Source: Candidatus Latescibacterota bacterium (GTDB lineage Bacteria; Latescibacterota; UBA2968; UBA8231). From it: a stretch of DNA of 64,000 bases. The stretch spans positions 832,001 through 896,000 of the forward strand of contig CBDETY010000003.1 in NCBI GenBank assembly GCA_965243025.1, given 5' to 3'. The notes beneath the pieces are model-generated. The model saw nothing but the letters and a program-made list of their open reading frames with translations. It was not told the origin of the DNA and made no database searches. Position 1 is the first letter of the stretch. Each line of letters starts with the position of its first letter. The position numbers were made by a program, and so were the translations under genes. This document shows, one piece after another, positions 3,001 to 22,482 of this stretch.

Positions 3001-3037
3001 CCGCGTCCTGACGCGCAAACTCACCCTGCTGAGATAG
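1..3037 (+). pseudogene. 5'-partial secreted metzincin protease-WD40-LRR-dockerin-like-FlgD Ig/T9SS-type CTD protein, split by a +1 frameshift at CCCC 295-298 (real or sequencing error)
   Basis: Frame 1 is open from base 1 and has HELGHIFGLHH. Removing one C restores HPYFNPDVPLENESPPTVEL, matching the paralog at 16440, and joins ORF 482-3037 (WD40, 24-aa LRRs, DFNGDGKTDFVDFF, QNAPNPFN...RKLTLLR). Confidence 0.8.
1750..2130 (+). repeat. Coding tandem repeat, about 5 near-identical 72-bp LRR units
   Basis: Repeated LSSLRILNIxNNGLTSLPEDVFDG with near-identical DNA. Confidence 0.9.
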
Positions 3038-3049
3038 TCGAATTCCCCG

Positions 3050-5389: not shown

Positions 5390-5580
5390 AGTACAGGAAA
5401 ACTTTCACTTAAAGAAGAGATGGATCGTTGGGGAGCGTCACCAAACGATTTTTCCCCACCGGTTCGGAGTCCCTTTTAAAACAGAAACCAAAGATCTGGT
5501 GTCTACACAAATACACAAGGTGTTCTACATTGGCTTAAGTAATTTGTAACGGGCCCTTTTGATCGACAGGAGAAACGTAT

Positions 5581-6267
5581 ATGCAGTGTTTTTTTCTGGT
5601 CTTCTGCCTGACCGCGCTTGCAATGCACTCCCCGCTCTTCGCCCAGAAGATTGAAGATGTCATTCACTTGAAGAATGGAGAAACTGTTCGCGGCACCATC
5701 ATCGAGCAGATTCCGGGCGAATCGCTGAAGATACAAACCGCAGACGGCAGCGTCTTCGTCTATACGATATACGAAATCGCGGAAATAAGCAGGGAACCGG
5801 TGATGAAAATGGGAGAAGGATTCATCAAGGCCAAAAGGAAAAATCCCTGGCTTGCTTCGGGCCTGTCGTTGCTGATTCCGGGTACGGGACAATTTTATAA
5901 CGACCAACACAAAAAGGGGTTGCCACAACTCGGTGCTGCACTTGCAGGGGCAGGGCTTATGTGGTGGGCTGTGAAAGATAATTATGAAAGTTGGGAGAGT
6001 TATGAGGAAAACCCGTCCTGGAACCCGCTTGATTGGATCGATGAGGATGGAGACGACAAGCTATTCTACTTCGGGACTCCCCTCTGGTTAGGCAGCCTGG
6101 TCTGGTCGGTGATTGATGCAAACCGCTCGGCCAACCGAATCAACCAGGAAGGTGAACAACCTGATTTCGGCCATCTGCTGGAGTTGGGTACAGACCAGGT
6201 CACGCTTGGAGTGGATCCCGTCTTCGGGCGCTACGGACCAGGTGCGAAACTTGTGCTTCATTTTTGA
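5581..6267 (+). CDS. Membrane protein with TM2/DUF5683-like motif
   Basis: Signal peptide, VIHLKNGETVRGTII N-domain, KRKNPWLASGLSLLIPGTGQFYN motif, further hydrophobic helices; AGGAG RBS. Confidence 0.7.
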   Translation: MQCFFLVFCLTALAMHSPLFAQKIEDVIHLKNGETVRGTIIEQIPGESLKIQTADGSVFVYTIYEIAEISREPVMKMGEGFIKAKRKNPWLASGLSLLIPGTGQFYNDQHKKGLPQLGAALAGAGLMWWAVKDNYESWESYEENPSWNPLDWIDEDGDDKLFYFGTPLWLGSLVWSVIDANRSANRINQEGEQPDFGHLLELGTDQVTLGVDPVFGRYGPGAKLVLHF

Positions 6268-6409
6268 TCTCCACGCAATTGCCAGCTCTCCATCCTGACC
6301 GTGAGAGTGCAGGAAACTCTCTATATCTCTTTTCAAGAGCAACCGGATCGGGAATGACTGACCATCAATTAAAAACCCGTTTATCCAGTTACCCGCAAGG
6401 AGACAGGCT

Positions 6410-8245
6410 ATGAACAACTATGCCCTGATTTTGTTGTTGGCCCTGGGCCTGGCCGCATGCAGGGGACCTCAGGGCCCTCCGGGCACTGATGGCCAGATCG
6501 GCCCGATGGGACCTTCAGGCGAACAGGGTTCCCAAGGGGAAAAAGGGGATAAAGGCGATGAAGGGCCTCAGGGAGAAACTGGGGAACAGGGACCTCAAGG
6601 ACCCCAGGGGGAAACAGGACAGCAAGGGCCTCAAGGGGAAACTGGGGAACAGGGACCTCAAGGATCCCGGGGGGAAACAGGACAGCAAGGGCCTCAAGGG
6701 GAAACTGGGGAACAGGGACCTCAAGGACCCCAAGGGGAAACAGGACAGCAAGGGCCTCAAGGGGAAACCGGGGAACAGGGACCTCAAGGACCCCAGGGGG
6801 AAACAGGCCAACAGGGACCCCAAGGTGACCCAGGACCTGAGGGACCCCAAGGCCCGGAAGGACCTCCAGGCCAACAGGGACCCCAAGGTGACCCAGGACC
6901 TGAGGGACCCCAGGGACCGGAAGGATCGCCAGGCGAGCAAGGACCTGAGGGCCCCCCGGGACCGGAAGGACCCCAAGGACCAGAGGGACCTGAAGGACCC
7001 GGCGGTGGCGAAGAAGGGCCCCCAGGACCTCAAGGACCTCCAGGAGAACAGGGACCTCCAGGAGAACAGGGACCGGAAGGACCGGAGGGACCTCAAGGAC
7101 CTCCAGGGGAGCAAGGACCTCCAGGGGAGCAGGGGCCGCAGGGACCGGAAGGACCCGAAGGGCCTGAAGGACCTCCAGGCGACCAAGGTCCGGAAGGACC
7201 GGAGGGACCTCAAGGACCTCCAGGATCTGGAGAATCCGGAGGCGGACAAGGGGGACAGGAACCTCCCGTCTTCGAGGCCACGGGTGATAGTGCCGCCCTG
7301 GTCGCTCTTTACTATGCCGCGGGCGGGGAATCCTGGACGGATAATTCCCAGTGGCTGAGCTCGGCTCCTATCGCAGAATGGTACGGCGTCACCACCAACC
7401 CCAGCGGCCGCCAGATCCTTCGGCTGGACCTGTCAGACAATGCGTTGTGGGGGCCAATTCCCCCCGAACTTGCTGACCTCGCCTACCTGGAATACCTGGA
7501 CCTCTCCGGTAACGGGTTGAGGGAGGACATTCCACCGGAACTGGCAAACCTCGAAAACCTGGAAGTTCTGAATCTTTCAAACAACGATTTCCATGGGGAA
7601 GTTCCACCGGAACTGGCAAACCTCGAGAGCCTGGAAACCCTCAACCTGTTCGGCAACGAATTGGAGGGGGAAATTCCACTGGAACTGGGGAACCTCCGCA
7701 ACCTGAGAACCCTTTCCCTGGGTTCTAACAAGTTGGAGGGGGAAATTCCACCGGAACTGGCAGACCTCGAAAACCTGGAAGTCCTTAACCTGGCAAATAA
7801 CCGGTTGGAGGGAATTCTGCCGGACTTTCTGGCGGACTTCTCCAACCTGGATAACCTGCTCCTAAGTGGAAACACCCAACTGAATGGGTGCTTACCGGAA
7901 GGGGCGCCGGTGCCGTTCTGCACACTGCCAGGCAACCTGAATGCAAGGCGCGAAAACGGCGATACAGTCCTCACCTGGGATCCTGTGGAAGGAGCCACCC
8001 ACTACAATCTTTACTGGAACCCTGAACCTTTCGGTACAGATTGCACAGTGACCTCCGGTGGTTCCACAGGGACATCGTTCAGGGGTTGTTCAGCATTAGC
8101 TACCGAAATTACTGAGACAACCTACATCCACGACCGCTCCGATTTGGAATACGAATACTGGGTTACTGCCTGTACCAGCGATGGGTGCGGGACCATCACA
8201 TGGGTGGAGGACGAAAGCGAGCAGGATCCTCCAGCTAAAATTTAG
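6410..8245 (+). CDS. Lipoprotein with long collagen-like Gly-X-Y stalk, LRR domain and Fn3-like C-terminus
   Basis: Lipobox LAAC; GPQ/GPE triplets; plant-type LRR cap (DSAALVALY...W..W.GV) and LxLsxNxLxGxIPPEL repeats. Confidence 0.9.
6463..7230 (+). repeat. Collagen-encoding low-complexity repeat, including 63-bp tandem units
   Basis: [21 protein letters not shown] units repeated. Confidence 0.9.
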
Positions 8246-8411
8246 GATTACTTGGACCAGGAATACTCTTCTTTTTCAGTTGTCAGACCAAGCTTGGACC
8301 GAATGAGTACGACTCTTCCCTGTCGGACCGATTGCGACATGTAAAGAATAGTCCTTCACCCAAAAGGGGGCATCGGAAAACCAGCCCTCCTCATCTGAAA
8401 GGAAGAATGCA

Positions 8412-9380
8412 ATGAAATATTTTGCGTTTTCCTTGTTGCTTGCTTTTGCCTTCTCTGCATGCACCGGCCCTCGGGGGGAACAGGGCCCGATGGGACCTCA
8501 AGGGCCCCAAGGAGAAAAGGGGGAACAAGGCCCGCAAGGACCTGAGGGACCTCAAGGCGAAGGTGAACAAGGCCCGCAAGGACCTGGGGGACCTCAAGGA
8601 GAACAGGGACCCCAGGGAGAACAGGGACCTCAAGGAGAACGAGGTTCGATGTACAGGATGCTGTACTGGGCGGACTCCGACGCGGGCAAGATTCAGCGAG
8701 CCAATCTCGATGGTTCCGAAGTTCAAACCATCGTCTCCGGATTGGAGGATCCGGAGGGCATTGCTCTCGACGCGGTCGGCTGGAAGATATACTGGACTGA
8801 ATGGGGGAGCGTTAAGCGGGCAAACCTCGATGGCTCCCAGATCGAAAGCCTCGGCACCGTATGGGGAAGTGACATCGCTTTGGACGTGGCTGGAGGAACG
8901 TCTTACCTGGCGAACTGGAAAGAGACGATCTACCGCACGGGCCTGGGCGGTTCCCCAGTCGAAACCCTCGTCACCGAAGCGGGTGCGTCCGAGGCAATCG
9001 CCCTGGATCTGAGAAGGGGCAAGATGTACTGGGGTGGATGGCGCGGAGAGGAGATCAGCCGGTCCGACCTCGACGGTTCCCAGGTCGAAATCATCGTCAC
9101 CGGCGTGGATCGGGTACACGACCTGGAGGTCGACGAGAGTTGGGGCAAGCTGTACTGGGCATCGAATGCGGGGGTCCAGCGGGCAAACCTCGACGGGTCC
9201 CAGGTCGAAACCCTCTTCTCCGAAAACAGCATGGGCATTGCCCTCGACCTCGGCGGGGGCAAGATATACTGGACTGAATGGATCGAGGAGAGGATTCGGC
9301 GGGCAAATCTCGACGGGTCCCAGGTCCAGACCATCGTCACCGGGTTGGAGTGGCCGCGCGATATCGCCCTGGCCCCCTGA
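8412..9380 (+). CDS. Lipoprotein with short collagen stalk and YWTD/LDL-receptor class B beta-propeller
   Basis: Lipobox FSAC; Gly-X-Y; repeated IALD...KIYWTE...IQRANLDGS. Confidence 0.85.
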
Positions 9381-9469
9381 AACCCGGAACTAACGGGAAT
9401 ACCTCGGAAGTTGCGGTTTAACCCGGAATTTTCCCAAGCCTCGACGGCAATTCTGAACCGTAAGGAATC

Positions 9470-11044
9470 ATGAGAAAGCAACTCCTTTTCTCAGTCTTTA
9501 TTTCGGGAGCGGCCTGGAACTTTTTCCCAAGGTTTCTCGAGGCCCAAATAGACGTCGGTGTGGTTTCTGAAAGCATCGTCCGTGTTCGTGCGTACCAGAT
9601 AGACGGGGTTGAAGTCGAGGGAGCCGGGTTTGTCGTCAACGAAATGGGGCACGTCCTTACGAATGCCCATCTCATTGAGAAAGCGGATAGAGTAACGGTA
9701 TTGTCCCTGAAAACGGACGCCGAGGCAATTCCCGAGCAGGTGTTCGCCGACCGCGAAATCAACCTCGCCCTTTTGCAAACACAGAATTTGAACCTCCCCC
9801 CCCTCAGGCTGTCCGAAAGGGCAGCCGGTGCAGGCCGAATCGTCCAGACGCTGCGCTTCGGCGTCATGGGGGATGTCTCGCTTTCCCAGGGAACCATAAG
9901 CACCTGGGAAACCATTTTCGAAAAGAAGGCAGGACGGGTCGTTGGGCGCCTGCTGCAACACAATGCCTTGATATCCGCAAAAGCCTTCGGCATGCCGTTG
10001 TTCAACGAATGCGGAGACGTGGTGGCAATCAACATGCCGAATCCCCGCGGCGGACCGTGGCCGTTTCGAACAGCGAAACCGAAAGGGGCCGTTTTTGCCT
10101 TGAGCAGCAACGACTTGGTAGCTGCTCTCGACGGCCGGAAAATCCCGCATCAGGCGGTAAATACTGAATGCCTGGGTGCACTCGAGCGGGCCGAACGCGA
10201 CAAACTGGCCACCGAGGACAGCCTGAAACTGGCAAGGGCGGAAGCCGACTCGGCGATAAAGGCCGCATCAGAAGCCGGGGAGAAGGAGAAGGCGGCCCGG
10301 CAAGAGGCTGAAAGGGTTAAAGCCCGGGCGGAGGCTGCGAGAAAGGCGGCTGCCCGGAGCATTCAGGCTGCCAGAGCCCAGGCGGAGAGTCTGAAGACAG
10401 CGACAGTGCGGGCGGTCACGGCGGTAAAAGCTGCGCCCGATGGCCCGCAGGCTTCCAAGGTTCAAACGGATAGCCTGGAGACAGGGAAAGCGTTCCCCGA
10501 TTCGACGACTGACGAGACCGCCGACAGCAGCGAACAACCTGCCCGGGAGATCCCGCTGAGCTTGAAGTGGGGGATTCCAATCGGGGGAGCCGTTGTGTTG
10601 CTCATCCTGCTCGGCTGGTTGCTTGCCGCCCACCGGAGAAAGGAACAGCTGCGCAGCGCCGAGTCCCGTTTGAGCGCAGCGCACCAGGCTGCGGCGGCCG
10701 CACCGAAGCCGGCGCCTTTCAGATGCCTGCTGGAAGGCCGGGACAGCTCCGGCCGGGAATTCGCATTGACCATATCGGCCCTGGCGCTGGGTGATCCGGC
10801 CGGTGTAACGCTTGGGAGGAGTCCGGCGAATGCCGATTTCGTCGTCGATCACGATGAAGTCTCCCGCGAACACGTCCGCCTCAGGTGCACTGGCCCCACC
10901 CTCTACGCGGAGGATTTGAACGCCCTGAACGGGACCAGGGTAAATGGCCGTTTGCTGAATCAGGAGGAAAGGGTGCCCCTGCAAAACGGGGATCGGCTCG
11001 AGACAGGCCCGATTGTTTTCTCCGTGCTCCTGGTCCAGGAGTGA
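9470..11044 (+). CDS. Membrane protein: trypsin-like (probably inactive) domain, coiled coil, TM, cytoplasmic FHA
   Basis: GAGFVV..LTNAH present; DLAL appears as NLAL and GNSGGP as KAFGMP; TM WGIPIGGAVVLLILLGWLL; FHA motifs LGRS, VSREH, NGT. Confidence 0.85.
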   Translation: MRKQLLFSVFISGAAWNFFPRFLEAQIDVGVVSESIVRVRAYQIDGVEVEGAGFVVNEMGHVLTNAHLIEKADRVTVLSLKTDAEAIPEQVFADREINLALLQTQNLNLPPLRLSERAAGAGRIVQTLRFGVMGDVSLSQGTISTWETIFEKKAGRVVGRLLQHNALISAKAFGMPLFNECGDVVAINMPNPRGGPWPFRTAKPKGAVFALSSNDLVAALDGRKIPHQAVNTECLGALERAERDKLATEDSLKLARAEADSAIKAASEAGEKEKAARQEAERVKARAEAARKAAARSIQAARAQAESLKTATVRAVTAVKAAPDGPQASKVQTDSLETGKAFPDSTTDETADSSEQPAREIPLSLKWGIPIGGAVVLLILLGWLLAAHRRKEQLRSAESRLSAAHQAAAAAPKPAPFRCLLEGRDSSGREFALTISALALGDPAGVTLGRSPANADFVVDHDEVSREHVRLRCTGPTLYAEDLNALNGTRVNGRLLNQEERVPLQNGDRLETGPIVFSVLLVQE

Positions 11045-11050
11045 GTTGAA

Positions 11051-12001
11051 ATGAAAAGACGCAGACCCGAACTGACGATTTTCAGTATGTCCGCGCTCGA
11101 TCTGCTCGCATCGGCCCTCGGTGCTTTCATCCTGATAACCGTAGTGCTTATCCCCCTGTTCCCGAACCTGGAAATCCTGGGTCAGGTGAGGGGCGAGTTG
11201 GCCCAGAAAAAAACCGAGTTGGAACAGACCAGGGAAGATCTCGACCTGGCAATGGCCGAATTGGACCGGAAGAAATCCGAATTCCAGTTGGACAAGGAGA
11301 AATCGGAGCGGGAAAGGACTCAACTGGAGCAGAAGAACGTCGAGCTGAAACGGGAAAAGGCCGGACTCGAGCAGAAAAAGGCATTGGCCCGGCAGACCAG
11401 AACCGAACTTGTAGAACAGATCCAGGCGTTACAACAAAAGATTGACGACACCAGTGTCCTGCTCGGCATAAGGACAATCGCCAGGAAATTCGTTTTCGTC
11501 ATCGATATGTCGGGCAGCATTTACCACCCCGGGGAGCACGACTACCGCCAGTTCATAAGGCTGTCCATACAAGACATGCTCGCTTCCTTCAAATCCGAAA
11601 TAGAAGTCTGCCTGATCGGTTTTCAGACTCCTGAACGGGGAACAACCTTGCATTTCTGGCCCGAGAACAAGGAATACTTCCAGGTCGGGAAGGATGCACA
11701 TGATCAACTGATTGAAAAGGTAAACGACTGGATGGGAATGGTAGACGGCGTCACCCCTACCCGGGCGGCGTTGCTGGAGGCCATTGCCCTGCAACCTGAG
11801 GAAATCATCCTTCTGAGCGACGGGGCTCCCTCGGAGGACTGGCGCACGGTGGTGCGAGCCGTAACCGCCGAAAACAGGCAGAGAATACCCATACACGCAG
11901 TAGCCGTGGGAAATTACACCGCGGACCGGAAGTTCATTGATTTCCTCGTGAATCTGACAAAGCAGAACAACGGGTACGTGGTGGGAGCAAAACCGGGCTG
12001 A
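11051..12001 (+). CDS. MotB/ExbD-like N-terminal TM, coiled coil and vWA domain protein
   Basis: TM FSMSALDLLASALGAFILITVVL with intramembrane Asp; complete MIDAS DMSGS...T...LSDG. Confidence 0.85.
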   Translation: MKRRRPELTIFSMSALDLLASALGAFILITVVLIPLFPNLEILGQVRGELAQKKTELEQTREDLDLAMAELDRKKSEFQLDKEKSERERTQLEQKNVELKREKAGLEQKKALARQTRTELVEQIQALQQKIDDTSVLLGIRTIARKFVFVIDMSGSIYHPGEHDYRQFIRLSIQDMLASFKSEIEVCLIGFQTPERGTTLHFWPENKEYFQVGKDAHDQLIEKVNDWMGMVDGVTPTRAALLEAIALQPEEIILLSDGAPSEDWRTVVRAVTAENRQRIPIHAVAVGNYTADRKFIDFLVNLTKQNNGYVVGAKPG

Positions 12002-12027
12002 CATGTACGGCTGAGAGGAGAAGGAGA

Positions 12028-12828
12028 ATGGCGGAATCCAACATGGTAAAACCCAGAAGCATCAACAGGGACCAACGACTGATCGCCAGCGTCGTCAGTC
12101 TGGCCGGGGGCATTTTTTACATAGCTGTCCTGAGCTTTGTTTTCGATCATCCCGATTCCATCGCGGGCGACTTCCTGCTGGATCGCAACTCCAGAAACTT
12201 CACCTACCCGTTCACCATCCAGAACCTCATGTGGCTGTTGTTCTGGTTCGGGTGCGGCGAACTGTTTGTGCGGTTCAACCAGGCCAAGCTCGAAATGGAG
12301 CAGATTTCCAAAGGTTATCTGCCGGAAGGTGACGAGGTAATGCTTCAGGCCCACGAATTGGGGCCCTTGCACCAGAAATCCATGCCCGTCGCCAGGGAAC
12401 GGACCTTTTTCCTGCCGCGTCTGATCGTGCGCTGCATCCTGCAATTCCAGGGAAGCCGCTCCGTCAACCAGGCCAACTCCCTGCTCAATTCCTCCCTCGA
12501 GTTGTTCCAGCACGAGCTCGACCTCAAATACTCGATGCTGCGCTACCTCGTCTGGCTCATTCCGACGATGGGTTTTGTGGGCACTGTTCTCGGCATCGCC
12601 TTGTCCCTGGACTACGCGGCGAAAATCGTGGACCCCCATGACCCGGACTTGCTGCGCCAGATCACCGGGCGGCTCGGGGTCGCCTTCTACACCACCCTGC
12701 TTGCCCTGGTCCAGTCCATTCTTCTGGTGTTTGCGCTCCACATTGCCCAAAACCGGGAGGAAATGGCCCTGAACCTGTCCGGGCAGTACTGCCTGGACAA
12801 CCTGATCAACCGCCTCTACGAAAAGTAA
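12028..12828 (+). CDS. MotA/TolQ/ExbB ion-channel family protein
   Basis: IPTMGFVGTVLGI and VAFYTTLLAL signatures; four TM helices. Confidence 0.9.
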   Translation: MAESNMVKPRSINRDQRLIASVVSLAGGIFYIAVLSFVFDHPDSIAGDFLLDRNSRNFTYPFTIQNLMWLLFWFGCGELFVRFNQAKLEMEQISKGYLPEGDEVMLQAHELGPLHQKSMPVARERTFFLPRLIVRCILQFQGSRSVNQANSLLNSSLELFQHELDLKYSMLRYLVWLIPTMGFVGTVLGIALSLDYAAKIVDPHDPDLLRQITGRLGVAFYTTLLALVQSILLVFALHIAQNREEMALNLSGQYCLDNLINRLYEK

Positions 12829-12881
12829 ATCTCCTTCGAGAAACTCCGCGTCTCAGGGAACCCCAAGGAAGGAAGGGAACC

Positions 12882-13535
12882 ATGCCGGTTTTTCGCCGCC
12901 CCGATGGAAACATAACCGAGAAAAAAACCGGGAAATCAGAGAAGGATTCCCCGCCGCCCGACCAGGCCAACAGGCCGCTGCCGCCGGCATCTCAGGAAGG
13001 GGGTCAAGCCGCTCCCCCCGGTCGTTTCGATGCTGCCACCAAGCGGATGGAGACAGACCCTTCACCACCCCGCCCTGGAGATGACGAGAAAACACGGCTG
13101 GTCGGTGGACGGGCGCCGCGGTCAGACAAAGGGGTCGTCCAGGAAAGCGCCGCGGAAAGCCGCGGGATGGACGATCCGGTCGTTGGATGGCTGGTGATCG
13201 TCGAGGGGCCGGGAAAGGGCCGGGCGGTGCAACTGGGGTATGGATCCAATTCCCTCGGGCGCGGCGCAACCGACCGCGTCAAGCTCGATTTCGGCGACGA
13301 CCAGATTTCCCGGAATGGCCATGCGGTGGTCACCTACGACCCCCGCGGCCGGAAGTTCTACGTGCAGCACGGGGGCGGCACCAACCTGACGTATCTCGGC
13401 GATCAGCCGGTCTTGACTCCGGCAGAGTTGCCGCCAATGGGCCGGATCGGAATCGGGAATACCGTTCTCCGGTTCGTGCCCTTCTGCGGTACGGAGTTCG
13501 ACTGGCAGGACTCGGAAGAAAGCGAAGACGCTTGA
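12882..13535 (+). CDS. FHA domain protein with disordered N-terminal tail
   Basis: VGWLVIVEGPGKG...LGRG...ISRNGHA...TNLTY. Confidence 0.9.
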   Translation: MPVFRRPDGNITEKKTGKSEKDSPPPDQANRPLPPASQEGGQAAPPGRFDAATKRMETDPSPPRPGDDEKTRLVGGRAPRSDKGVVQESAAESRGMDDPVVGWLVIVEGPGKGRAVQLGYGSNSLGRGATDRVKLDFGDDQISRNGHAVVTYDPRGRKFYVQHGGGTNLTYLGDQPVLTPAELPPMGRIGIGNTVLRFVPFCGTEFDWQDSEESEDA

Positions 13536-14410
13536 GCGAAAGCGGTCGCTGTGCCGCGGGGCAAATCCGCGGCAAACGGAGCTGCCAGGAAGACGACTAC
13601 GGCTTCGTCGATGCACGCGCCCTCGGAACAGACCGTAACGAACACTCCCTGTTACTGGTGGCCGACGGCATGGGCGGCCACGCCGGCGGCGCCACTGCCA
13701 GCGGTCTTCTGAGAAAGACCTTTGTCGAGGCCTACCCGCGGGCTTCCGGGCCGATCGTCCATCGCCTTCAAGGTTGTCTCCAATCGGCCAATGCAGCCAT
13801 GGCGGACGCCGTTGACCAGAATCCCGAGCTGGCCGGCATGGGTTCCACCCTGGTCGCGGCCGTCGTCTCCGCCGGGGGCCTGAACTGGATCAGCGTCGGG
13901 GATTCCCCGTTGTGGTTGTTCCGCAAGGGCGCGCTGGAGCGGTTGAACGCAGACCACTCCATGGCACCGGTCCTCGCCGACCTCGTTTCCACCGGGCGGA
14001 TGACCGAAGAGGACGCCGCCCGGGATCCCGCCCGGCATTCGCTCAGGTCCGCGGTCACGGGCGAGGACATACATCTGGTTGACATATCGCCGCAACCGGT
14101 TCCCGTGGAGAATGGCGACCGGCTGCTGTTGGCCAGCGACGGGCTGATGACTCTCGGAGATCGGGAGATCGCCGGTATCCTCGAGGAAACGCAGGACGCG
14201 TCATTGGAGGACAGCACCGCAGCCCTTATCCAGGCAGTGGAAGCCGCGGGAAATCCCCGGCAGGACAATACCACTCTTCTGTTGTACGCCCCCGCCGGAG
14301 GCACCCAACCCCCCGGGGCCGATGTGGCCGGGTCGGAAGCCGACCGGGGCATTCCCCGCCTGAAACGCTGGGCGAGACTGTTTGGCAGATCCGCAGGACG
14401 GAAACAGTAG
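13532..14410 (+). CDS. PP2C/PPM Ser/Thr phosphatase
   Basis: QEDD, VADGMGGH, MGSTL, VGDS, ASDGL, QDNTT motifs; probable TTG start overlapping the upstream TGA. Confidence 0.92.
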   Translation: MSESGRCAAGQIRGKRSCQEDDYGFVDARALGTDRNEHSLLLVADGMGGHAGGATASGLLRKTFVEAYPRASGPIVHRLQGCLQSANAAMADAVDQNPELAGMGSTLVAAVVSAGGLNWISVGDSPLWLFRKGALERLNADHSMAPVLADLVSTGRMTEEDAARDPARHSLRSAVTGEDIHLVDISPQPVPVENGDRLLLASDGLMTLGDREIAGILEETQDASLEDSTAALIQAVEAAGNPRQDNTTLLLYAPAGGTQPPGADVAGSEADRGIPRLKRWARLFGRSAGRKQ

Positions 14411-14483
14411 GGGGTCAGCCGGGAGGCCGGGGAAGCAGAAAAGGTGCCTTGGCGGCCCTGCGATACACGCACGGTCCGGTCTG

Positions 14484-16376
14484 ATGGGTGAGGAACAACA
14501 GCATCGCCTGGCGCTGCCGAAGGGGACTCGCATTCGCGACTTCGAGTTTCACCGGGTCCTCGGCCACGGCGGATTCGGGATCACCTACCTGGGATGGAAC
14601 ATCACCCTGGATATTCCCGTTGCGATCAAGGAGTACTTCCCTTCTGATCTCGCTACCCGCGAGAGGAACCTTTCCGTCGTGCCCCAAACGACTCAGGCCG
14701 CCCCTGATTTCAAATGGGGCCTCGAGCGCTTCCTGGACGAAGCCCGCACTCTCGCCCGCTTCCAACACCCCGGCATCGTCCGCATCCATCACTTCTTTGA
14801 GGCCCACCGCACCGCCTATATCACGATGGAATACGTGGAGGGGGAAAGTCTGTCCGCATATCTGAAGCGCAAGGGAACGCTGAGCGAAAACGAGCTGAAA
14901 GGGATTCTGAACCCGTTGCTGGGCGCTTTGGAAGTGGTGCATCGAGCAGACTTTCTGCACCGGGACATCAAACCCGCCAACATCGTCCTCAGGGAAAAGG
15001 ATGGCTCGCCGGTTTTGCTGGACTTCGGGGCCGCGAGGCAGGCAATGGGCGCCAGGAGCCGCTCGGTCACGTCGATAGTTACCCCGGGGTATGCGCCGAT
15101 AGAACAGTATTCGACCCGGGCTGCCCAGGGAGAGTGGACGGATATCTACGCCCTGGGGGGGGTCTGTTATCGGGCGTTGACCGGAGAGAGCCCCTTCGAT
15201 GCAACCGACCGGATGCGGAACGACCCGCTTGTTCCGGTGGCTCAGCGCTGCGCTGGCAAAGCAAGTCAAGGATTTCTCGCGGCGATAGATGCCGCCCTGG
15301 GGGTGGATGCTCACGATCGTCCCCAGAGCATTGCGGAGTGGCGAGAGGTGCTGCGCGGTGCGGGACAGGAGGCGGCGCCATCGAAGCACGGGAAGCGCTT
15401 CCCATACAAGCGTCTTGCGGCCGTCCTGGGGCTGGTTGCTCTCCTGATCGGTGGCCAGAGGTATGTGGAGCACGTCGAACAGGTGGCTGCGGCCCGGGAA
15501 AGACAGGAACAGGCGGCGCTGGAAAAACAGCGCCAGGAAGTGGCCGTGCTGGAGAAGCGGCAACGCGTAGAAGCGGACCTGGAGAAACAGCGTAAGGAAC
15601 GGTCGAAACTGGAGCAGCGGCGTCTGGACCAAGCGGAGCTACGGAAACGAGCCCGGCAAAAAACCGCGTTGGAGAAGCAGCAGCGCGAAGAAGCGGCAGT
15701 GGAGAAAGAGCGTCGGGAACAAGCCGAGCTACAGCAACGGGCCCGGGAACAGGCAGGGTTGGAAAAGCAGCAGCGGGAACAGGCGGCGCCGGACGTACAG
15801 CGCAAGGAAGAAGCGGCGTTGGAGAGACAGCGCCAGGAGCAAGTATTCGTCCAGGAGGTGGGACGCCCTCCGAGTCCGGGAGGAATAAGCAAGGGCGATA
15901 CCGATCTGCATATCGCCGCGCGGCTGAACCTGCCTCTGCTGGCTGTATCCCTCTTCGAGCAGGGTGCCGATGTCCACGCCAGGAACGAGGACGGCTGGAC
16001 ACCGCTGCACGTTGCCGCGAAGGAGGCCGCTTCCGGGGCCGCGGAAGTCCTGATCGAGCAGGGCCCCGATGTCAACGCGAGGGAAACACTGTTTGGCTGG
16101 ACGCCGCTGCACCTGGCCGCGGCGGAAGATGCTATTGCGACTGCCGAGGTCTTGCTCAAACAGAATGCCGATCTCCACGCCAAGGACAAATTCGGCTGGA
16201 CGCCGCTGCATTCAGCGGCGGCCAACAATGCCCATGAGACCGCCGAGGTCTTGTTGAAGGCCGGGGCTGACGTGAACGCAGAGGACAACCATGGCTGGGC
16301 ACCGCTCTACTGGGCCTCACGCAAAGAGGCGGTCCAGGCGGTGGACGTCCTGCGTCGTTACGGTGGTAGAAAGTGA
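14484..16376 (+). CDS. Hanks-type Ser/Thr kinase with TM, coiled coil and C-terminal ankyrin repeats
   Basis: LGHGGFG, VAIKEY, HRDIKPAN, DFG, YAPIEQ; TM LAAVLGLVALLIGG; GWTPLH ankyrin repeats. Confidence 0.93.
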   Translation: MGEEQQHRLALPKGTRIRDFEFHRVLGHGGFGITYLGWNITLDIPVAIKEYFPSDLATRERNLSVVPQTTQAAPDFKWGLERFLDEARTLARFQHPGIVRIHHFFEAHRTAYITMEYVEGESLSAYLKRKGTLSENELKGILNPLLGALEVVHRADFLHRDIKPANIVLREKDGSPVLLDFGAARQAMGARSRSVTSIVTPGYAPIEQYSTRAAQGEWTDIYALGGVCYRALTGESPFDATDRMRNDPLVPVAQRCAGKASQGFLAAIDAALGVDAHDRPQSIAEWREVLRGAGQEAAPSKHGKRFPYKRLAAVLGLVALLIGGQRYVEHVEQVAAARERQEQAALEKQRQEVAVLEKRQRVEADLEKQRKERSKLEQRRLDQAELRKRARQKTALEKQQREEAAVEKERREQAELQQRAREQAGLEKQQREQAAPDVQRKEEAALERQRQEQVFVQEVGRPPSPGGISKGDTDLHIAARLNLPLLAVSLFEQGADVHARNEDGWTPLHVAAKEAASGAAEVLIEQGPDVNARETLFGWTPLHLAAAEDAIATAEVLLKQNADLHAKDKFGWTPLHSAAANNAHETAEVLLKAGADVNAEDNHGWAPLYWASRKEAVQAVDVLRRYGGRK

Positions 16377-16439
16377 AGACTGCCCCGGAATCACGTTCCA
16401 CACTATGTGACTTCTTCCGAATTTCCGGAGCCTGACCCC

Positions 16440-18773
16440 ATGAACCTCCCCGTTCTTCACTCTGTCTCGTTCGCGTTGCTCGCTCTCTTGCTCTCGCCGC
16501 CCGTCAGCCATGCTTCTCCCCCGCTAGCCGGTAGTGTGCCTTTCTGCCAGCCTCTGGATCTCGAGCAGCTGGACCGAGACCATGCCCGCGCACCTGCCGA
16601 TCTGCCGCTAGTGTTCAACGTTTCCGACATAGGGGAGGTCGAAGAGAGCATTGTTCAGGAGCCTGATCCACCCGAACAACCCAAAGAGGTCGGCGAACCA
16701 CGCACCGTGCGGCTCTTTTACTTCCTACCCAATGACCGGACGTATCGCGCCGAGGTGGTTGAGGCGATGAAAACGGGGATTGTCGAGGTTCAGTCCTTCT
16801 ATGCTGAGCAGATGGAGGCGCATGGATACGGGAACAAAACTTTTCCGATTGAAACCGATGACCAAGGCGACCCGATCGTTCATCGCGTAGATGGAGACTA
16901 TCCCGAAAGCAATTACATCAGAATAAATTATTTTACGCAGGGTGAGATTAACCGAGCGTACGATAACTCTGCAAACGTCATACTAATAGTCATGGACGCG
17001 AGTAACTCTTCTACTATTCAGGGACACGCCATATACAGGGGTAAAGAGAGAGGAGAGGTGACACTTTATGAAGAGTGGGATTGGTCTACTGCGGTCCATG
17101 AACTTGGACACGGCTTCGGCCTACAACACGATTTCAGGTCTAATGCGTACATCATGTCGTATGGATGGTCAGATCGGGAAACTGTCCAATTATCTGCGTG
17201 CGCTGCCGAGTTTTTAGCCGTGAATCCCTACTTCGATTCGGATATCCCACTTGAAAACGAATCACCGCCCACGGTTGAACTAATTTCATCAGAAACGTAT
17301 CCATTCGGATCAGTAAGCGTGCCGGTCCAACTGAGAGTCCGCGATGATGATGGACTTCATCAGGTAATTTTCCTCTCTCAACCCCGAGATCCCTTGCACC
17401 CCCCCACCCCCGCAGTAAGAGAGTGTCGTGGATTGGCCGGTGAAACAGATACCGTCGTTGAATTCAATTTTGCTTGGAGATTTGACGCCGCAGTTAGTCA
17501 GCGTTCCGTTTATGTCGTGGCAGTCGATGCGAATGGGAATAGTAAGGAAGTGCCTTTTATCCTTGAGTCAGAACCTCCACCAGAACTTCCTCCAGGCACA
17601 GTGATCACTCCGGTCTGCGATCGTACGCGGCAGGTACGAGATGCCATCGTCGATAACATTAGTGGCATCTCGGACTGCGCGCAGGTGGCCGAGACTCACC
17701 TCGTGGCGATTTCAGGACTTAACTTGCCCGGCAGGAACATCACAGCACTGAAAGCCGGTGATTTTGATGGACTGATCTCGCTGAGATCAATCTCCCTGTT
17801 CAACAACCAGTTGAGTTCCTTGCCTGTCGGCCTCTTAGACGGACTGACCGCACTGGAATACCTCTCCCTGTTCAATAATCAGTTGACGGGGCTACCCGAG
17901 GGCCTGTTTGACGGGCTGACTGGGCTAACTACGCTCTACTTGCAGGGTAACACCGTGGATCCGCTGCCGCTTACGGTGTCCTTAGAGAAAGTTGGCACAG
18001 ATCAGTTCAAGGCCGTGGCACCCATCGGTGCACCGTTTGAGATGGTGCTGCCACTCACCGTTACGAACGGCAGTATTAGCGGTGGTGCAACCACCATTGC
18101 GATACCCGTCGGCAACCTGGAAAGCCAACCACTCACCGTGACCCCCACCCCCAGTACGACGGCTGCGGTCACCGTGGACATTGGCACCTTGCCGGGGCTG
18201 CCCTCAAACCATCAAGGCTACGCCCTCGTCAAATCCGCCAACCTGCCGGTGGAGATTTTCAGCAGTGGCGGGCCCGGCACTACAGTGGCACGGACCGACT
18301 TCAACGGCGACGGCAAGACCGATTTCGTCGACTTCTTCCAGTTCGTCGACGCCTTCGGCAGCACGGATGCCCGGTTTGACCTCAACGGCGACGGCAGGGT
18401 CGACTTCGTCGACTTCTTCGCGTTCGTCGATGCCTTCGGCTCGTCGGGGCAGGCCAAGCTGGTGGCCTTGGCCCGGGAGATGCTCGGTCTGCCGGGCGGA
18501 CCGGAGCTACAGCAGAACGCCCCCAACCCGTTCAACACCGAGACGGTTATCTCCTGGTTCCTGCTGGAGCCGGGTCTGGCACGACTGGAGGTGTTCGCCC
18601 TTACCGGGCAACGGCTGGCGGTGCTGCATCAGGGGCCGCTGCAGGCCGGGTACCATCGGCTCCACTGGGACGGCCGCGACGATGCTGGCCGGCCCCTTGC
18701 CAGCGGCGTCTACCTGTACCGGCTGACAACTTTCGAGGGCGACCTGACGCGCAAGCTCACCCTGCTGCGTTAG
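16440..18773 (+). CDS. Secreted metzincin protease with LRR, dockerin-like and FlgD Ig/T9SS-type CTD
   Basis: Signal peptide; HELGHGFGLQH plus Met-turn IMSY; LRRs; shared C-terminal tail. Confidence 0.88.
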   Translation: MNLPVLHSVSFALLALLLSPPVSHASPPLAGSVPFCQPLDLEQLDRDHARAPADLPLVFNVSDIGEVEESIVQEPDPPEQPKEVGEPRTVRLFYFLPNDRTYRAEVVEAMKTGIVEVQSFYAEQMEAHGYGNKTFPIETDDQGDPIVHRVDGDYPESNYIRINYFTQGEINRAYDNSANVILIVMDASNSSTIQGHAIYRGKERGEVTLYEEWDWSTAVHELGHGFGLQHDFRSNAYIMSYGWSDRETVQLSACAAEFLAVNPYFDSDIPLENESPPTVELISSETYPFGSVSVPVQLRVRDDDGLHQVIFLSQPRDPLHPPTPAVRECRGLAGETDTVVEFNFAWRFDAAVSQRSVYVVAVDANGNSKEVPFILESEPPPELPPGTVITPVCDRTRQVRDAIVDNISGISDCAQVAETHLVAISGLNLPGRNITALKAGDFDGLISLRSISLFNNQLSSLPVGLLDGLTALEYLSLFNNQLTGLPEGLFDGLTGLTTLYLQGNTVDPLPLTVSLEKVGTDQFKAVAPIGAPFEMVLPLTVTNGSISGGATTIAIPVGNLESQPLTVTPTPSTTAAVTVDIGTLPGLPSNHQGYALVKSANLPVEIFSSGGPGTTVARTDFNGDGKTDFVDFFQFVDAFGSTDARFDLNGDGRVDFVDFFAFVDAFGSSGQAKLVALAREMLGLPGGPELQQNAPNPFNTETVISWFLLEPGLARLEVFALTGQRLAVLHQGPLQAGYHRLHWDGRDDAGRPLASGVYLYRLTTFEGDLTRKLTLLR

Positions 18774-18797
18774 ATGAACAGGACCCAGGAGACCTCC

Positions 18798-20222
18798 ATG
18801 AGAGCTTCGGTAATTCAATCCGCAGTAATGGTGTTTTTTCCTGTTCTGCTCTTTCAGGCCCCCGGCCACGCCTCCCCCTTCCCTATTGACTGGGCCCACT
18901 CCTGCCGGCCCCTCGATGCCGAGCAGTGGGAGGGCGACCACACCGGCGTTCCAGCCGCAAAGTTGCTCACCACGAACGCCGGCCAGACGCGCGACGTGAA
19001 GTTGATCTACTTCATTCCCAACGACCGCTCGTTCGACTCCGACGTGGTCGACTCTATAAAAGTCAGGATTCCCCGTATACAGACTTTCTTCCGCGACCAG
19101 ATGCAAACCCACGGTCACGGCACCAAAACCTTCCAGTTGGAAACCGACGCCCAGGGAGACCCCGTTGTGCATCGCGTTGACGCGCCGAACTCCGATGCCA
19201 GCTATCTCCAGTCGTACCGAAGGGTCGGCGTCGGCAACGTTCTCAGGGACCTGAGACCGACGTTCGATTACAGCAGCAGCATTCTGTTCATCGTGGTCGA
19301 CCACAGCACCTACGACAACCTAGGTTGGGGCAACGTGGCAGGGTTCGGAGGGGGGGCAAAGAACAGCGGGTACGCGCTTCTCCCGGCCAGCTTCATTGAC
19401 GAAACCGCCGCCCATGAGCTGGGCCATGCCTTCGGCTTGCAGCACGATTTCAACGACGACGCCAACATCATGTCCTACGGCCCGGGATGGAATCGGTTAT
19501 CCGCGTGCAGCGCCGGGTTCCTGGCCGTGCATCCCTACTTCGATTCCGACGTCCCGATTGAAGAGCAGCAGACCTGGGATCTTCTGGCGCCGACCGTCGA
19601 CCTTGTATCCCCTCTCAGGTATGCAGCAGGCTCAACCAGCTTGTCCGTTCAATTCAGAATCACCGCCTCGGGAAATCCGGGGCTTCACCAGGTGCTTTTC
19701 TTCCTCAAATCAAGAGCGCCCCACCCTGCCGCGGGATCTCATGAAGTGAAGGGATGCCATGACCTGCATGGCGTGCAGGATACCGTAGTTGTATTCCAAC
19801 ATGACGGGGTGATCCCGTCGGAGGGCTCCGGAAGTCTTTCCGCCTCCCCTGCGCACTACATATCCGTGCAGGCAGTCGATACCGAAGGAAACGCGAACAC
19901 GGGACCCTATAAAGCCACTCATTACGTTCTTGCTGAAGATTCGCCTCACCACCTCGCCACGCTTGTCAGATATACAAGCAAATACTCACCGGAGATCTAC
20001 GGAGCGAAGTTTTCACCCGACGGGACGATCTTCGCCGTCAATTCGTCGGCGGGGATCCAGATATGGGACATGGCGACGCCAGCTTTTGTCGCTACCCTCA
20101 GCGGGGGCAGCTCTGCAATGGCGTTCTCGCTCGACGGGACTACCCTCGCTTCCGGGTCCACCAGAACCGATGAGGCCAACATCGGGATATATGTATTTAA
20201 TTACACAAGACAATTTAAGTAA
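18798..20222 (+). pseudogene. Secreted metzincin-WD40 protein truncated within the WD40 region
   Basis: HELGHAFGLQH plus IMSY. Homology breaks after LASGST (about 20165) and the frame runs into AT-rich foreign sequence; the tail found in paralogs is missing. Confidence 0.75.
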
Positions 20223-20319
20223 TCTCATCCGCGAAATTAAAAGAATTCTGGTATAATATAATAGAGAAAATACAGAAAAACGGACATCCTTAGTCCCACT
20301 GTATAGCCGGGAGATGGGG

Positions 20320-21500
20320 GGATGTCGACTGGCTGGCAATTCCACATGATTGCCTGCTGATCCGGAAACCTGCCAGAATGGCACCCTGGATCGAAAAGGC
20401 CACCGCTCTGATCGAGGTGGAAACCGGGGCTCCTGCTCTGATCTCGATGAGGTGAGCAGGAATTCATTCCGTTTTGTCGGCAAGTTGGCAAGCAGGATAG
20501 CCCACTGGTGAAGGCGTCTTTTCTGCGCAAGACGGCAGGCACCGAACAGCGGGATGTCGCCTTGTTGACCATTCGAGAAGATTCGCCGCTTCCATCCAGA
20601 TGGGGATGATCCAGTTCAGCCGGCGATGGGACCGGAGGCAACGAGCAGCAGCATATTATCCTCAAAGTCAGGCAGTCTGCATCCGGCGATGTATCCAGAC
20701 TCGCAGGTACCTCCCCCCTGAAGTCGGCACCGTGAATCGAAAGGCCACCGCTCTGATCGAGGAGGAAATCGGGGCTCCTGCTCTGATCTCGATGAGGTGA
20801 GCAGGAAATCATTCCGTTTTGTCGACAAGTTGGCAAGCAGGATGACTGAGGATTCCTCGGGTGCAGGCTGAGCTGTCAGGCGCAACAGGGGAGGCAGCCG
20901 GCAGGGATGTCGCCTTCCTGACCATTCGAGAAGATTTCGCCGCTTCCATCCACAGACTCCGTTCGGCCGACAATGCGAAGAAAGACAGGGGACCAGCGGA
21001 ATGGATGGGGATCTCAAGGCCCTTTGATTGTCCCAAATTGGGACATTTAACTCCGTGGGCGGTGGATCCGAATCTGAATGTCGGCGACTCGCCGTAGGTA
21101 TTATCCCAGACTCCTCGGTACCTCTCCCCGGAAGTCGGCACTCTGGATCGAAAAGGCCACCGGGCTCTGATCGAGGAGGGGGATGCGCGGACTCCCTGAA
21201 TCTGCAAAGCCGTCGTCGTCGAGGTGAGCAGGAGATCATTCCGTTTGGTCGACAAGATGGAAGCAGGATGACTAAGGATTCCTCGGGTGCAGGCTGAGCT
21301 TTTCGCGCAAGAGGGGAGGCAGCCGACAGGTATGTCGTCTTGCTGACCATTCGAGAAGGATTTTCCCTCCATCCACAGACCACAGTTGAGAATCGATTCC
21401 GTTCCGCCGGCGATGCGGGTATTCTCCGCAGGAGACTTGACGGCAGGCAACGACCAGCGGGAATGTCGCCTTGCTGACTACTCGAAAAGACTCGCCCTTT
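20320..21500. repeat. Non-coding array of 3 full and partial degenerate units (core about 220-280 bp, period about 345-410 bp)
   Basis: ATCGAAA(A)GGCCACC at about 20390/20736/21147; ATGTCGYCTTSYTGACYAYTCGARAAG-like motif at about 20554/20907/21332/21463. Confidence 0.88.
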
Positions 21501-22482
21501 CCTTCGACCGATGGTGCGTGAAGGGGACCGGAGGGATCTCCGTCGCCAGCAGATCCCGGTAGGTCAGCCGTTTCCCCAGCATCCCTCGAACGAGGTATTC
21601 CATCTGATCCAGGAGAGCCATTTCCCGGATATTGTACCTGCCGACGACCTCCCTCAGGTAGCGCGGAAAATACTTGGGGGACACATGGCGATAGGTCCCG
21701 AAGATAACCGCCTTCAGCTTGGCCCAGAACGACTCGATGGTGTTGGTATGGGCCTCGTCCCGGACGTATTCGCCTTGTTGGTGGTTGACGACCAGGTGCC
21801 TTCCGGGCCAGGTCAAGGCCCCATAGACCGGGGCCTCGTCGGTGCACAGGGTTTCATTTTCTTCCAGGTGCTTCTCTACGAGGGGGGCCACGGTCTCCTG
21901 ATCGGCTTTGAGGATCATCCTGGCGTCCCCTCTGCGGCTTTCCCGGTCTACCACTGCGAGGGCCTGAACCCTGCCCTTCCTCCAGTTGCGACCGAATTTC
22001 TTGTCGGCGTGCCTCTTCTTGTCGTTCCCTCCGACCCAGGCTTCGTCGACCTCGAGGAACCTGCTGCGCAGCGGTTCGGGATCCGGCCAGGCTTCCCGGA
22101 GGCGGTGCAGCATGAACAGAGCCGACCGGTAATTGAGTCGGAGTTTGCGGCTCAGCTGCACGGCGTTGATCCCCATGGGGTCGGACAGATACAGCCAGAC
22201 GCCGAAAGCCCATTTCCGATAGGAGATCCTGGAGCGGTACAGTACCGTTCCGATGCGCACGCTGAACCGCTTTTGACAGTCGCTGCACCGGTAGGGCATC
22301 GGCTTGCGGTTGCGACACTCCCGGATGCGGTCGCCGCCGCCGCAGTGCGGACAGCGTATGAATTCGGGCAGGCCGTCTACCCTCTTTCCCCATCTGATCT
22401 TCTCGATCCATCTCTCTGCTGCTGCATTGTCTGGAAACAGTATGTACAAATCAATCAACGAGACATCTTTACCTTTGTTCAT
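21478..22482 (-). mobile_element. IS1595-family transposase
   Basis: Zn ribbon CPHC..CSDC, FSVRIGT, EVDEAW, TDEA, NTIESFW, RLTYRDL. Confidence 0.93.

Follow-up and report, generated by a model that had tools for sequence, protein, structure and literature searches.

Modules that unite vWA, kinase, PP2C and FHA-type domains are known from the TerY-P triad, from the PpkA/PppA/Fha1 pathway of type VI secretion systems (T6SS) and from archaeal ArnA/ArnB. Motorless clusters of related content have been described for Deinococcus radiodurans, where DRA0331–0334 encode a vWA protein, a Hanks-type kinase, a PP2C phosphatase and an FHA protein (10.64898/2026.01.23.701218, accessible part), and the accessible part of PMC7159879 describes actinobacterial neighborhoods of kinase, PP2C and vWA genes. 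The closest described motors are those of PMC12204202 (Mol Biol Evol 2025;42:msaf138), in which membrane-anchored vWA proteins carry an ExbD/TolR-like “transpore helix” (TPH-vWA) with a conserved Asp. Their genes are tightly linked to tolQ-like genes, in the absence of tolR and exbD, and occur predominantly as heterologous pairs; TPH-vWA proteins were modeled with AlphaFold 3 as the dimeric core of a 5:2 motor, an in-silico prediction, and were reported from Proteobacteria and Verrucomicrobia. Here, we describe an operon of six genes, g1 to g6, in which a pair of this type (g2, g3) is encoded together with proteins for threonine phosphorylation and its recognition. The operon lies in a stretch of 64,000 nucleotides, hereafter the window (G000:C3:832001-896000), from the genome of a Candidatus Latescibacterota bacterium of the sponge-symbiont type (GenBank assembly GCA_965243025.1, 6.8 Mb, 96% complete). 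The six-gene arrangement is more than chance, since its genes recur around members of the g3 family in many phyla and are co-inherited within the phylum.

The g3 and g2 proteins look like the A and B subunits, respectively, of a motor of the same class as MotAB, ExbBD and TolQR, in which a vWA head takes the place of the peptidoglycan-binding domain on the B subunit. A preliminary description of the window had proposed such a stator-like pair, and the Pfam matches, the predicted folds and two invariant residues of g2 support it. Pfam assigned g3 to MotA_ExbB (PF01618) with an E-value of 7.6e-10 and 39.1 bits, against a curated cut-off of 22.9. Its AlphaFold2 (AF2) model, with a predicted local distance difference test (pLDDT) score of 86 and a predicted template modeling score (pTM) of 0.80, has four predicted helical membrane segments and a small cytoplasmic domain. 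The best folds in the Protein Data Bank (PDB) were TolQ, TolQR and ExbB, followed by PomA/MotA, with TM-scores of 0.5–0.6 and a Foldseek probability of 1.0. Three conserved residues, T186, T222 and T223, lie in the last two transmembrane helices, and the protein stops ≈25 residues past the last of these, in an invariant C-terminal tail.

In g2, Pfam detected VWA_3 at residues 148–309 (E 1.7e-8). The AF2 model (pLDDT 86) consists of a helix at residues 13–36, a long helix at 42–133 and an α/β domain at 135–313. Foldseek returned 206 PDB matches at E ≤ 0.001, and the top matches listed were all vWA or I-domains, led by ITIH1, CLCA1, CMG2 and the integrin I-domains. The transmembrane Asp, D17 in the sequence SALDLL, is invariant in all 77 aligned partners, and D152, in the metal ion-dependent adhesion site (MIDAS) motif DMSGS, is invariant in the same alignment. 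The open reading frames (ORFs) that resemble g2 carry the transmembrane-helix motif '..ALDLFASALGAF..', and the N-terminal Asp helix motif adjoins g3 homologs in 59–61 of the 80 loci compared below. A vWA domain was detected by Pfam in 18 of 28 diverse g2-like partners.

A 384-residue protein listed as MotA_ExbB plus FHA (P0021) was considered as a Rosetta-stone fusion and rejected, since a frameshifted small-FHA gene reads into g3 there, a gene-calling or sequencing artifact. Elsewhere in the source genome is a third, very divergent gene of the MotA_ExbB family (L002, 9720–10496; G000:C3:1623719-1624495), which encodes 258 residues (Pfam E 1.2e-5) and is flanked by genes for proteins of 419 and 158 residues that have no Pfam match. 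It may belong to another uncharacterized motor.

No ExbD/TolR/MotB-type domain was found by Pfam in the six genes or their flanks. The genome has seven ExbD matches, all of them >2 Mb from the operon in the window and >1 Mb from a paralogous copy of it, and two TonB_C matches, at 5.02 Mb and 1.37 Mb; these matches adjoin ordinary ExbB/TolQ genes, away from the operon. Since there is no ExbD gene near either operon copy, g2 is the sole candidate for a B subunit. Neither the T6SS sheath protein VipB/TssC (PF05943) nor FliG_C had a match in the genome. The operon thus does not count among the accessories of Ton, Tol, flagella or T6SS, in agreement with the preliminary description, in which no TonB, TolA, flagellar or T6SS structural genes were noted in the window.

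Comparison with the TPH-vWA motors, which was made by description, showed the same MotA/TolQ/ExbB-type A subunit, the same transmembrane-Asp partner with a C-terminal vWA domain, the same absence of tolR, exbD and motB, and conserved Thr residues in the channel helices. The TPH-vWA partners are predominantly paired, whereas only one g2 gene is present in the window; paired genes occur in its relatives L015, L016, L055, L059, L065, L069, L079 and L082. Members of the g3 family are additionally found in Latescibacterota, Gemmatimonadota, Acidobacteriota and Rhodothermales. The combination of motor and vWA has been published before as a prediction (PMC12204202). A term search of the main text of that paper found no kinase, PP2C or FHA domain; its Figure 4c and supplements may show such neighbors. 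Idiomarina, the seed genus of that work, was not among the 120 matches listed for a gammaproteobacterial partner. The stator-evolution and review papers that were searched do not mention vWA partners, and the combination of motor and phospho-signaling was not found in the literature searched, a body of text with most subscription journals outside its coverage; apart from PMC12204202, it yielded vWA-kinase papers on unrelated matters. The statement in the preliminary description that no characterization was known thus has to be narrowed: the pairing of motor and vWA had been predicted, while no paper was found on the link to phospho-signaling.

Other motors resemble the operon in part. The ExbB-ExbD-TonB and TolQ-TolR-TolA systems have the closest A-subunit fold, share PF01618 and a single-pass partner with an Asp, and a like output, proton-driven work in the periplasm, may be presumed. 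However, the operon has neither the ExbD/TolR periplasmic domain nor a third protein of the TonB/TolA type, and g3 has an extra N-terminal transmembrane helix relative to ExbBD/TolQR. It differs from flagellar MotAB/PomAB in that g2 ends in a vWA domain, not an OmpA-like peptidoglycan-binding domain, and in the lack of FliG in the genome; the lack of the sheath gene sets it apart from the T6SS PpkA/PppA/Fha1 pathway. In the Agl-Glt gliding machinery of Myxococcus xanthus, a TolQR-class motor is likewise linked to an envelope vWA protein, CglB. However, as described in the accessible parts of PMC9946355 and PMC11761067, CglB is an outer-membrane lipoprotein in its own right and the machinery requires many Glt proteins, none of which is conserved at the g3 loci.

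The motorless vWA-kinase-PP2C-FHA modules share all four domain types with the operon, with FHA readers and a vWA protein regulated by a kinase and a phosphatase. Their vWA proteins are, as far as is known, soluble or fused to the kinase, whereas g2 is a channel partner with a transmembrane Asp and a vWA domain that is predicted to be periplasmic.

We surveyed 168 genomes of the phylum, with thresholds of E ≤ 1e-40 for g3 and E ≤ 1e-25 for the g2 profile. The two genes occurred in exactly the same 35 genomes, within ≈2 kb of each other, and neither was found in the other 133. A g4-type FHA gene was present in all 35, directly 3′ of g3, and in only one of the others, as a copy with an internal stop. 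Because of this co-inheritance, g2, g3 and g4 constitute the invariant core in the phylum, with kinase, PP2C and protease-FHA (the g1 type) as usual but movable components. The distribution of g3 is patchy, covering 7 of 49 genera, with one to three matches per genome.

The g3 family comprises 137 clusters at 50% identity (E ≤ 1e-30) in at least six phyla, and the identity of g3 across phyla is 49–93%. We compared the neighborhoods of 80 loci, the best 80 of 166 confirmed g3 matches; they do not constitute an independent sample, and in two cases a single genome contributed two of them. A g4-type FHA gene lay directly downstream of g3 in 50 of the 80, followed by PP2C in 45–47, and a kinase gene was present in 51 and a protease-FHA gene in 31. 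In the 49 loci that had at least 5 kb of sequence on each side, representing at least six phyla, a g2-like gene was kept in 43 and at least one FHA gene in 39; FHA, PP2C and kinase occurred together in 28, and all five classes of gene were present in 20. The adjacency of MotA, FHA and PP2C genes was seen in Latescibacterota, Gamma- and Alphaproteobacteria, Acidobacteriota and Rhodothermales, and the order of the other genes varied. The closest named public relatives of the source genome are metagenome-assembled genomes (MAGs) of Latescibacterota; many of the other carriers are MAGs of sponge or coral symbionts, and the cultured marine carriers include Corallincola, Halioxenophilus (sp. WMMB6), Nioella (N. 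ostreopsis) and Pseudomonas sp. WN033; LSUCC0112 is a further cultured carrier.

A subgroup of Gemmatimonadota (L039, L042, L044–L046, L048–L051, L057 and L070–L076) has only a g3-like gene and a convergent gene for a vWA protein with a transmembrane Asp. No FHA, PP2C or kinase gene was detected near these motor pairs, and in the four scanned loci L042, L045, L051 and L076 a gene for a PG_binding_1 plus leucine-rich repeat (LRR) protein lies directly upstream.

Around the motor pair, the operon encodes two FHA proteins. Pfam identified Trypsin_2 (residues 51–187, E 1.5e-15) and FHA (residues 446–511, E 8e-16) in g1, whose membrane topology was predicted from the translation. When g1 was aligned to solved HtrA, DegP and DegS chains, the triad positions were occupied by His67, Asn98 (for Asp) and Phe173 (for Ser); judged by these residues, g1 is a dead protease, as the term “pseudo-trypsin” in the preliminary description had implied. 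In tandem pairs of protease-FHA genes, an HDS triad is usually encoded by one member and a degenerate triad by the other. The 42 sequences compared included 19 with HDS and 10 with HNF, the latter set including g1 and its paralog.

The other FHA protein, g4, was recognized as such by Pfam. An alignment of 47 orthologs showed a conserved N-terminal peptide, a disordered linker, the FHA domain and a conserved C-terminal motif; linker residues Thr53 and Thr71 are near-invariant and the binding residues of the FHA domain are kept. The linker Thr and the FHA domain could constitute a self-binding phospho-switch, by analogy with GarA and OdhI. In 48 of the 80 loci (among L006–L082), a small FHA protein, mostly of ≈105–175 residues, is encoded directly upstream of g3 (for example, L009, 9634–10002). 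The conserved peptide at its C-terminus is similar to the one at the N-terminus of g4. A strict version of the peptide motif was found in 54 of 3,617 ORFs from the loci, namely 31 g4-type proteins (at the N-terminus), 20 small FHA proteins (at the C-terminus) and three others, an enrichment that is partly circular since the motif was derived from the same proteins. That both FHA classes have this peptide in common is notable. A search with a relative's protein as the query found no small upstream FHA protein in the source genome itself.

The phosphatase g5 matched PP2C_2/SpoIIE in Pfam and the Stp1-type PP2C model of NCBIfam (E 4e-39, under that model's cut-off), and the kinase g6 matched Pkinase (E 6e-38) and Ank. 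When read in the translations, what we take to be the PP2C catalytic motifs of g5 and the VAIK, HRD and DFG kinase motifs of g6 were intact. The ankyrin repeats of g6 are predicted to be periplasmic. An ankyrin ectodomain was found only in the clade of the window; the kinases of ten relatives had FGE-sulfatase-like (four), PEGA (three), Sel1 (three) and β-helix (one) ectodomains, with two of these on one kinase. The gammaproteobacterial loci L033, L063 and L068 also have genes for large FHA- and PP2C-containing proteins and extra kinases upstream, on the divergent strand, which suggests a larger signaling set in these lineages.

The six genes lie at 9470–16376 of the window with spacings of 6, 26 and 53 bp, a 4-bp overlap and a spacing of 73 bp (Table 1). 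The ORFs and Pfam confirmed this layout and every domain that had been named in the preliminary description. A scan for promoters and terminators across 5000–21000 gave fewer sites than were found in shuffled sequence.

Table 1. Genes of the operon and the two genes directly upstream, with window coordinates and nucleotide identity to the second copy of the block.
Gene	Position	Strand	Features	Identity between copies	Place of divergence
g1	9470-11044	+	Signal peptide, inactive HtrA-like periplasmic domain, low-complexity/coiled linker, transmembrane helix, cytoplasmic FHA (topology predicted)	93.8%	Periplasmic part
g2	11051-12001	+	B-like subunit: basic N-terminus, transmembrane helix with Asp17, 92-residue helix, vWA (predicted periplasmic)	100%	
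g3	12028-12828	+	TolQ/ExbB/MotA-family channel (A) subunit, 266 residues	100%	
g4	12882-13535	+	FHA adaptor, predicted cytoplasmic	100%	
g5	13532-14410	+	PP2C-type Ser/Thr phosphatase; TTG start, overlaps g4 stop by 4 bp	98.2%	
g6	14484-16376	+	Hanks-type Ser/Thr kinase, transmembrane helix, repetitive coiled coil, ankyrin repeats; ATG start, ORF open from 14382	81.9%	Identity lowest in coiled-coil/ankyrin part
Collagen-repeat lipoprotein gene	6410-8245	+	Collagen and LRR (Pfam); directly upstream of operon		
Collagen-repeat lipoprotein gene	8412-9380	+	Collagen and YWTD propeller (Pfam); directly upstream of operon		

A block of ≈18 kb (window 2260–20184), comprising the operon and flanking repeat-protein genes, is present a second time on the same contig, at a distance of 1.59 Mb (L001, G000:C3:2413000-2432999, 1540–18471), with an overall identity of 85–92%. 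Within the block, a tract of 3,489 bp (window 10655–14143) is 100% identical between the two copies. The tract spans the transmembrane and FHA region of g1, all of g2, g3 and g4, and about two thirds of g5, a pattern suggestive of gene conversion in the membrane and cytoplasmic core, with divergence of the periplasmic sensor parts.

Both of the collagen-repeat proteins encoded upstream have lipobox-like N-termini. Homologs are found upstream of the operon in L001, L003, L004, L005 and L009, and of the ≈7 collagen-repeat ORFs that the genome contains, five lie beside one or other of the operon copies. These putative lipoproteins are possible lineage-specific accessories, and an interaction between vWA and collagen is an idea that we offer as such. 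The operon sits inside a co-oriented run of genes for eukaryote-like repeat proteins (482–5389 and 16407–20222), which comprise WD40 plus LRR, WD40, M12-type metalloprotease plus LRR plus FG-GAP, and metalloprotease plus WD40 proteins. A transposase gene of the IS1595 family is found on the opposite strand at 21478–22482 (−), 1.3 kb past the gene block.

The interpretation that we favor, with moderate confidence, is that of a TolQ-like/vWA proton motor that engages under the control of a switch of kinase, PP2C and FHA proteins. Here, a ring of g3 would surround a g2 dimer to form an ion-driven motor of the 5:2 class in the inner membrane, with D17 of g2 as the proton-binding residue. The helical stalk of g2, with a length of ≈14 nm estimated from its 92 helical residues, would hold two MIDAS-containing vWA heads in the periplasm, where they would grip a ligand. 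The motor would be encircled by a threonine-phosphorylation switch consisting of the kinase g6 with its ankyrin sensor on the outside, the phosphatase g5 and two readers of phosphothreonine (pThr), the soluble g4 and the FHA domain of the membrane protein g1. In response to a periplasmic cue, g6 would phosphorylate Thr residues, with Thr53 and Thr71 of g4 as candidate sites, and FHA docking would then engage or release the motor, so that proton flow would pull or turn the envelope partner bound to the vWA heads.

A number of observations weigh against this interpretation. By fold, the best Foldseek E-value for g3 was 3.6e-3, with no match at E ≤ 0.001, and a g3 profile had no match to PDB sequences at E ≤ 0.01 (PomA, TolQ and MotA appeared at E 0.12–0.95). 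Since g3 thus matches the solved motors poorly by both sequence and fold, its membership in the class rests on the Pfam match and the context. There was no Pfam match to ExbD (PF02472) or MotB in g2, and its PADLOC match to ZorB was weak (E 0.0025–0.0029). The cytoplasmic parts of g3 have no invariant Thr, so a docking site for FHA on the motor was not located. The preliminary description had expected homologs to keep the motor pair with kinase, FHA and PP2C genes. This applied to most relatives, with all three present in 28 of the 49 well-flanked loci, but ten of the 49 (nine from the Gemmatimonadota subgroup, and L058) had no FHA, PP2C or kinase, so the phospho-switch is not obligatory. The window itself has neither the small FHA gene nor the active-looking HDS protease-FHA gene that are common in relatives, so whatever these two proteins do is dispensable here. 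The identical tract in the duplicated block could be an assembly artifact. The direction of signal flow and the ligand of the vWA heads are guesses, and the searchable papers contained no experiment on the whole system.

A more far-reaching version, which we consider doubtful, would make the operon the first 5:2 motor controlled by Ser/Thr phosphorylation, with g4 as its clutch, a grip of vWA on collagen, and pulling or tethering cued by a host. By analogy with known FHA switches, g4 may act as a clutch through its linker Thr and the terminal docking peptide that it has in common with the small FHA proteins. The ligands gripped by the vWA heads would be the collagen-like lipoproteins encoded upstream, and the proton power of a symbiont could pull or tether eukaryote-like envelope proteins on a host cue received via the ankyrin ectodomain of g6. 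In an ancestral form with both an active and a dead protease-FHA protein, the motor might feed substrates to the periplasmic protease, as an ATP-free counterpart of an unfoldase-protease.

Signal flow in the opposite direction is somewhat unlikely, in our estimate. Load on the vWA heads, or contact with a ligand, would then change the state of the motor, and FHA proteins, kinase and phosphatase would relay a pThr signal to the cytoplasm. The preliminary description had suggested such a conversion of contact into a pThr signal; it stands as one possible direction of the signal, and the data do not distinguish it from gating of the motor by the kinase. The parts list and the co-inheritance are the same for the two directions. 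The three separate periplasmic modules (vWA, dead protease and kinase ectodomain) would suit a sensor, as would the differences in kinase ectodomain between lineages. However, no transcription factor or effector that could serve as an output is conserved in the neighborhoods, and the 5:2 motors described to date, as far as is known, do work on the envelope and do not sense it, with the exception of Zorya.

The likeness to Zorya, which the preliminary description had also raised, did not hold up for the defining features. An anti-phage or conflict system of this type, in which the motor would sense a breach of the envelope and the kinase, FHA and protease would respond, appears improbable to us. 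Like ZorAB, g3 and g2 are a MotAB-class pair outside motility, and PADLOC weakly matched g3 with ZorA2 (E 2.6e-5) and g2 with ZorB (E 0.0025). The patchy spread among 35 of 168 genomes and 7 of 49 genera, the one to three g3 matches per genome and the nearby IS1595 transposase would fit a defense system, and FGE-like, PEGA and Sel1 kinase ectodomains also occur in conflict systems, according to the accessible part of PMC7159879. However, g3 has only 266 residues and ends too soon after its last transmembrane helix to have the long tail of ZorA, g2 does not carry the peptidoglycan-binding domain of ZorB, and neither effectors of the ZorC/D/E type nor genes for a nuclease, a helicase or another effector are conserved nearby. 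PADLOC found no other Zorya component among the six genes, giving no match for g4 and generic kinase and phosphatase models only for g5 and g6, and Pfam identified the flanking genes as collagen, LRR, WD40 and metalloprotease proteins. The unusually high conservation of g3 across phyla is, in our understanding, atypical for defense genes.

It is very unlikely that a TolQ-like/vWA motor and a generic kinase/PP2C/FHA module merely lie side by side uncoupled: the motor pair does stand alone in the Gemmatimonadota subgroup and L058, and motorless vWA-kinase-FHA-PP2C clusters exist, such as DRA0331–0334 (10.64898/2026.01.23.701218, accessible part), but a g4-type FHA gene accompanies g3 in 35 of 35 genomes and occurs in only one of the 133 that lack g3, a co-inheritance that argues against mere juxtaposition, the MotA-FHA-PP2C adjacency extends across several phyla, and the identical tract covers motor and FHA genes alike.

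The gated motor that we favor would belong to a class of 5:2 proton motors that includes Ton, Tol, Mot, Gld/Agl and Zorya and that constitutes a general route of energy to the cell envelope; a new process has come to light with every member that was newly understood. The operon is a conserved, real system, with a core that had been predicted in silico and a signaling layer that was not found in the literature searched. With an adhesion-type vWA domain at the end of the B subunit, the gripping of a ligand becomes a directly testable output, and the occurrence of the g3 family in cultured marine bacteria makes bench study feasible. If our interpretation is true, the kinase/phosphatase/FHA switch would be the first post-translational on/off control of its kind for a 5:2 motor.

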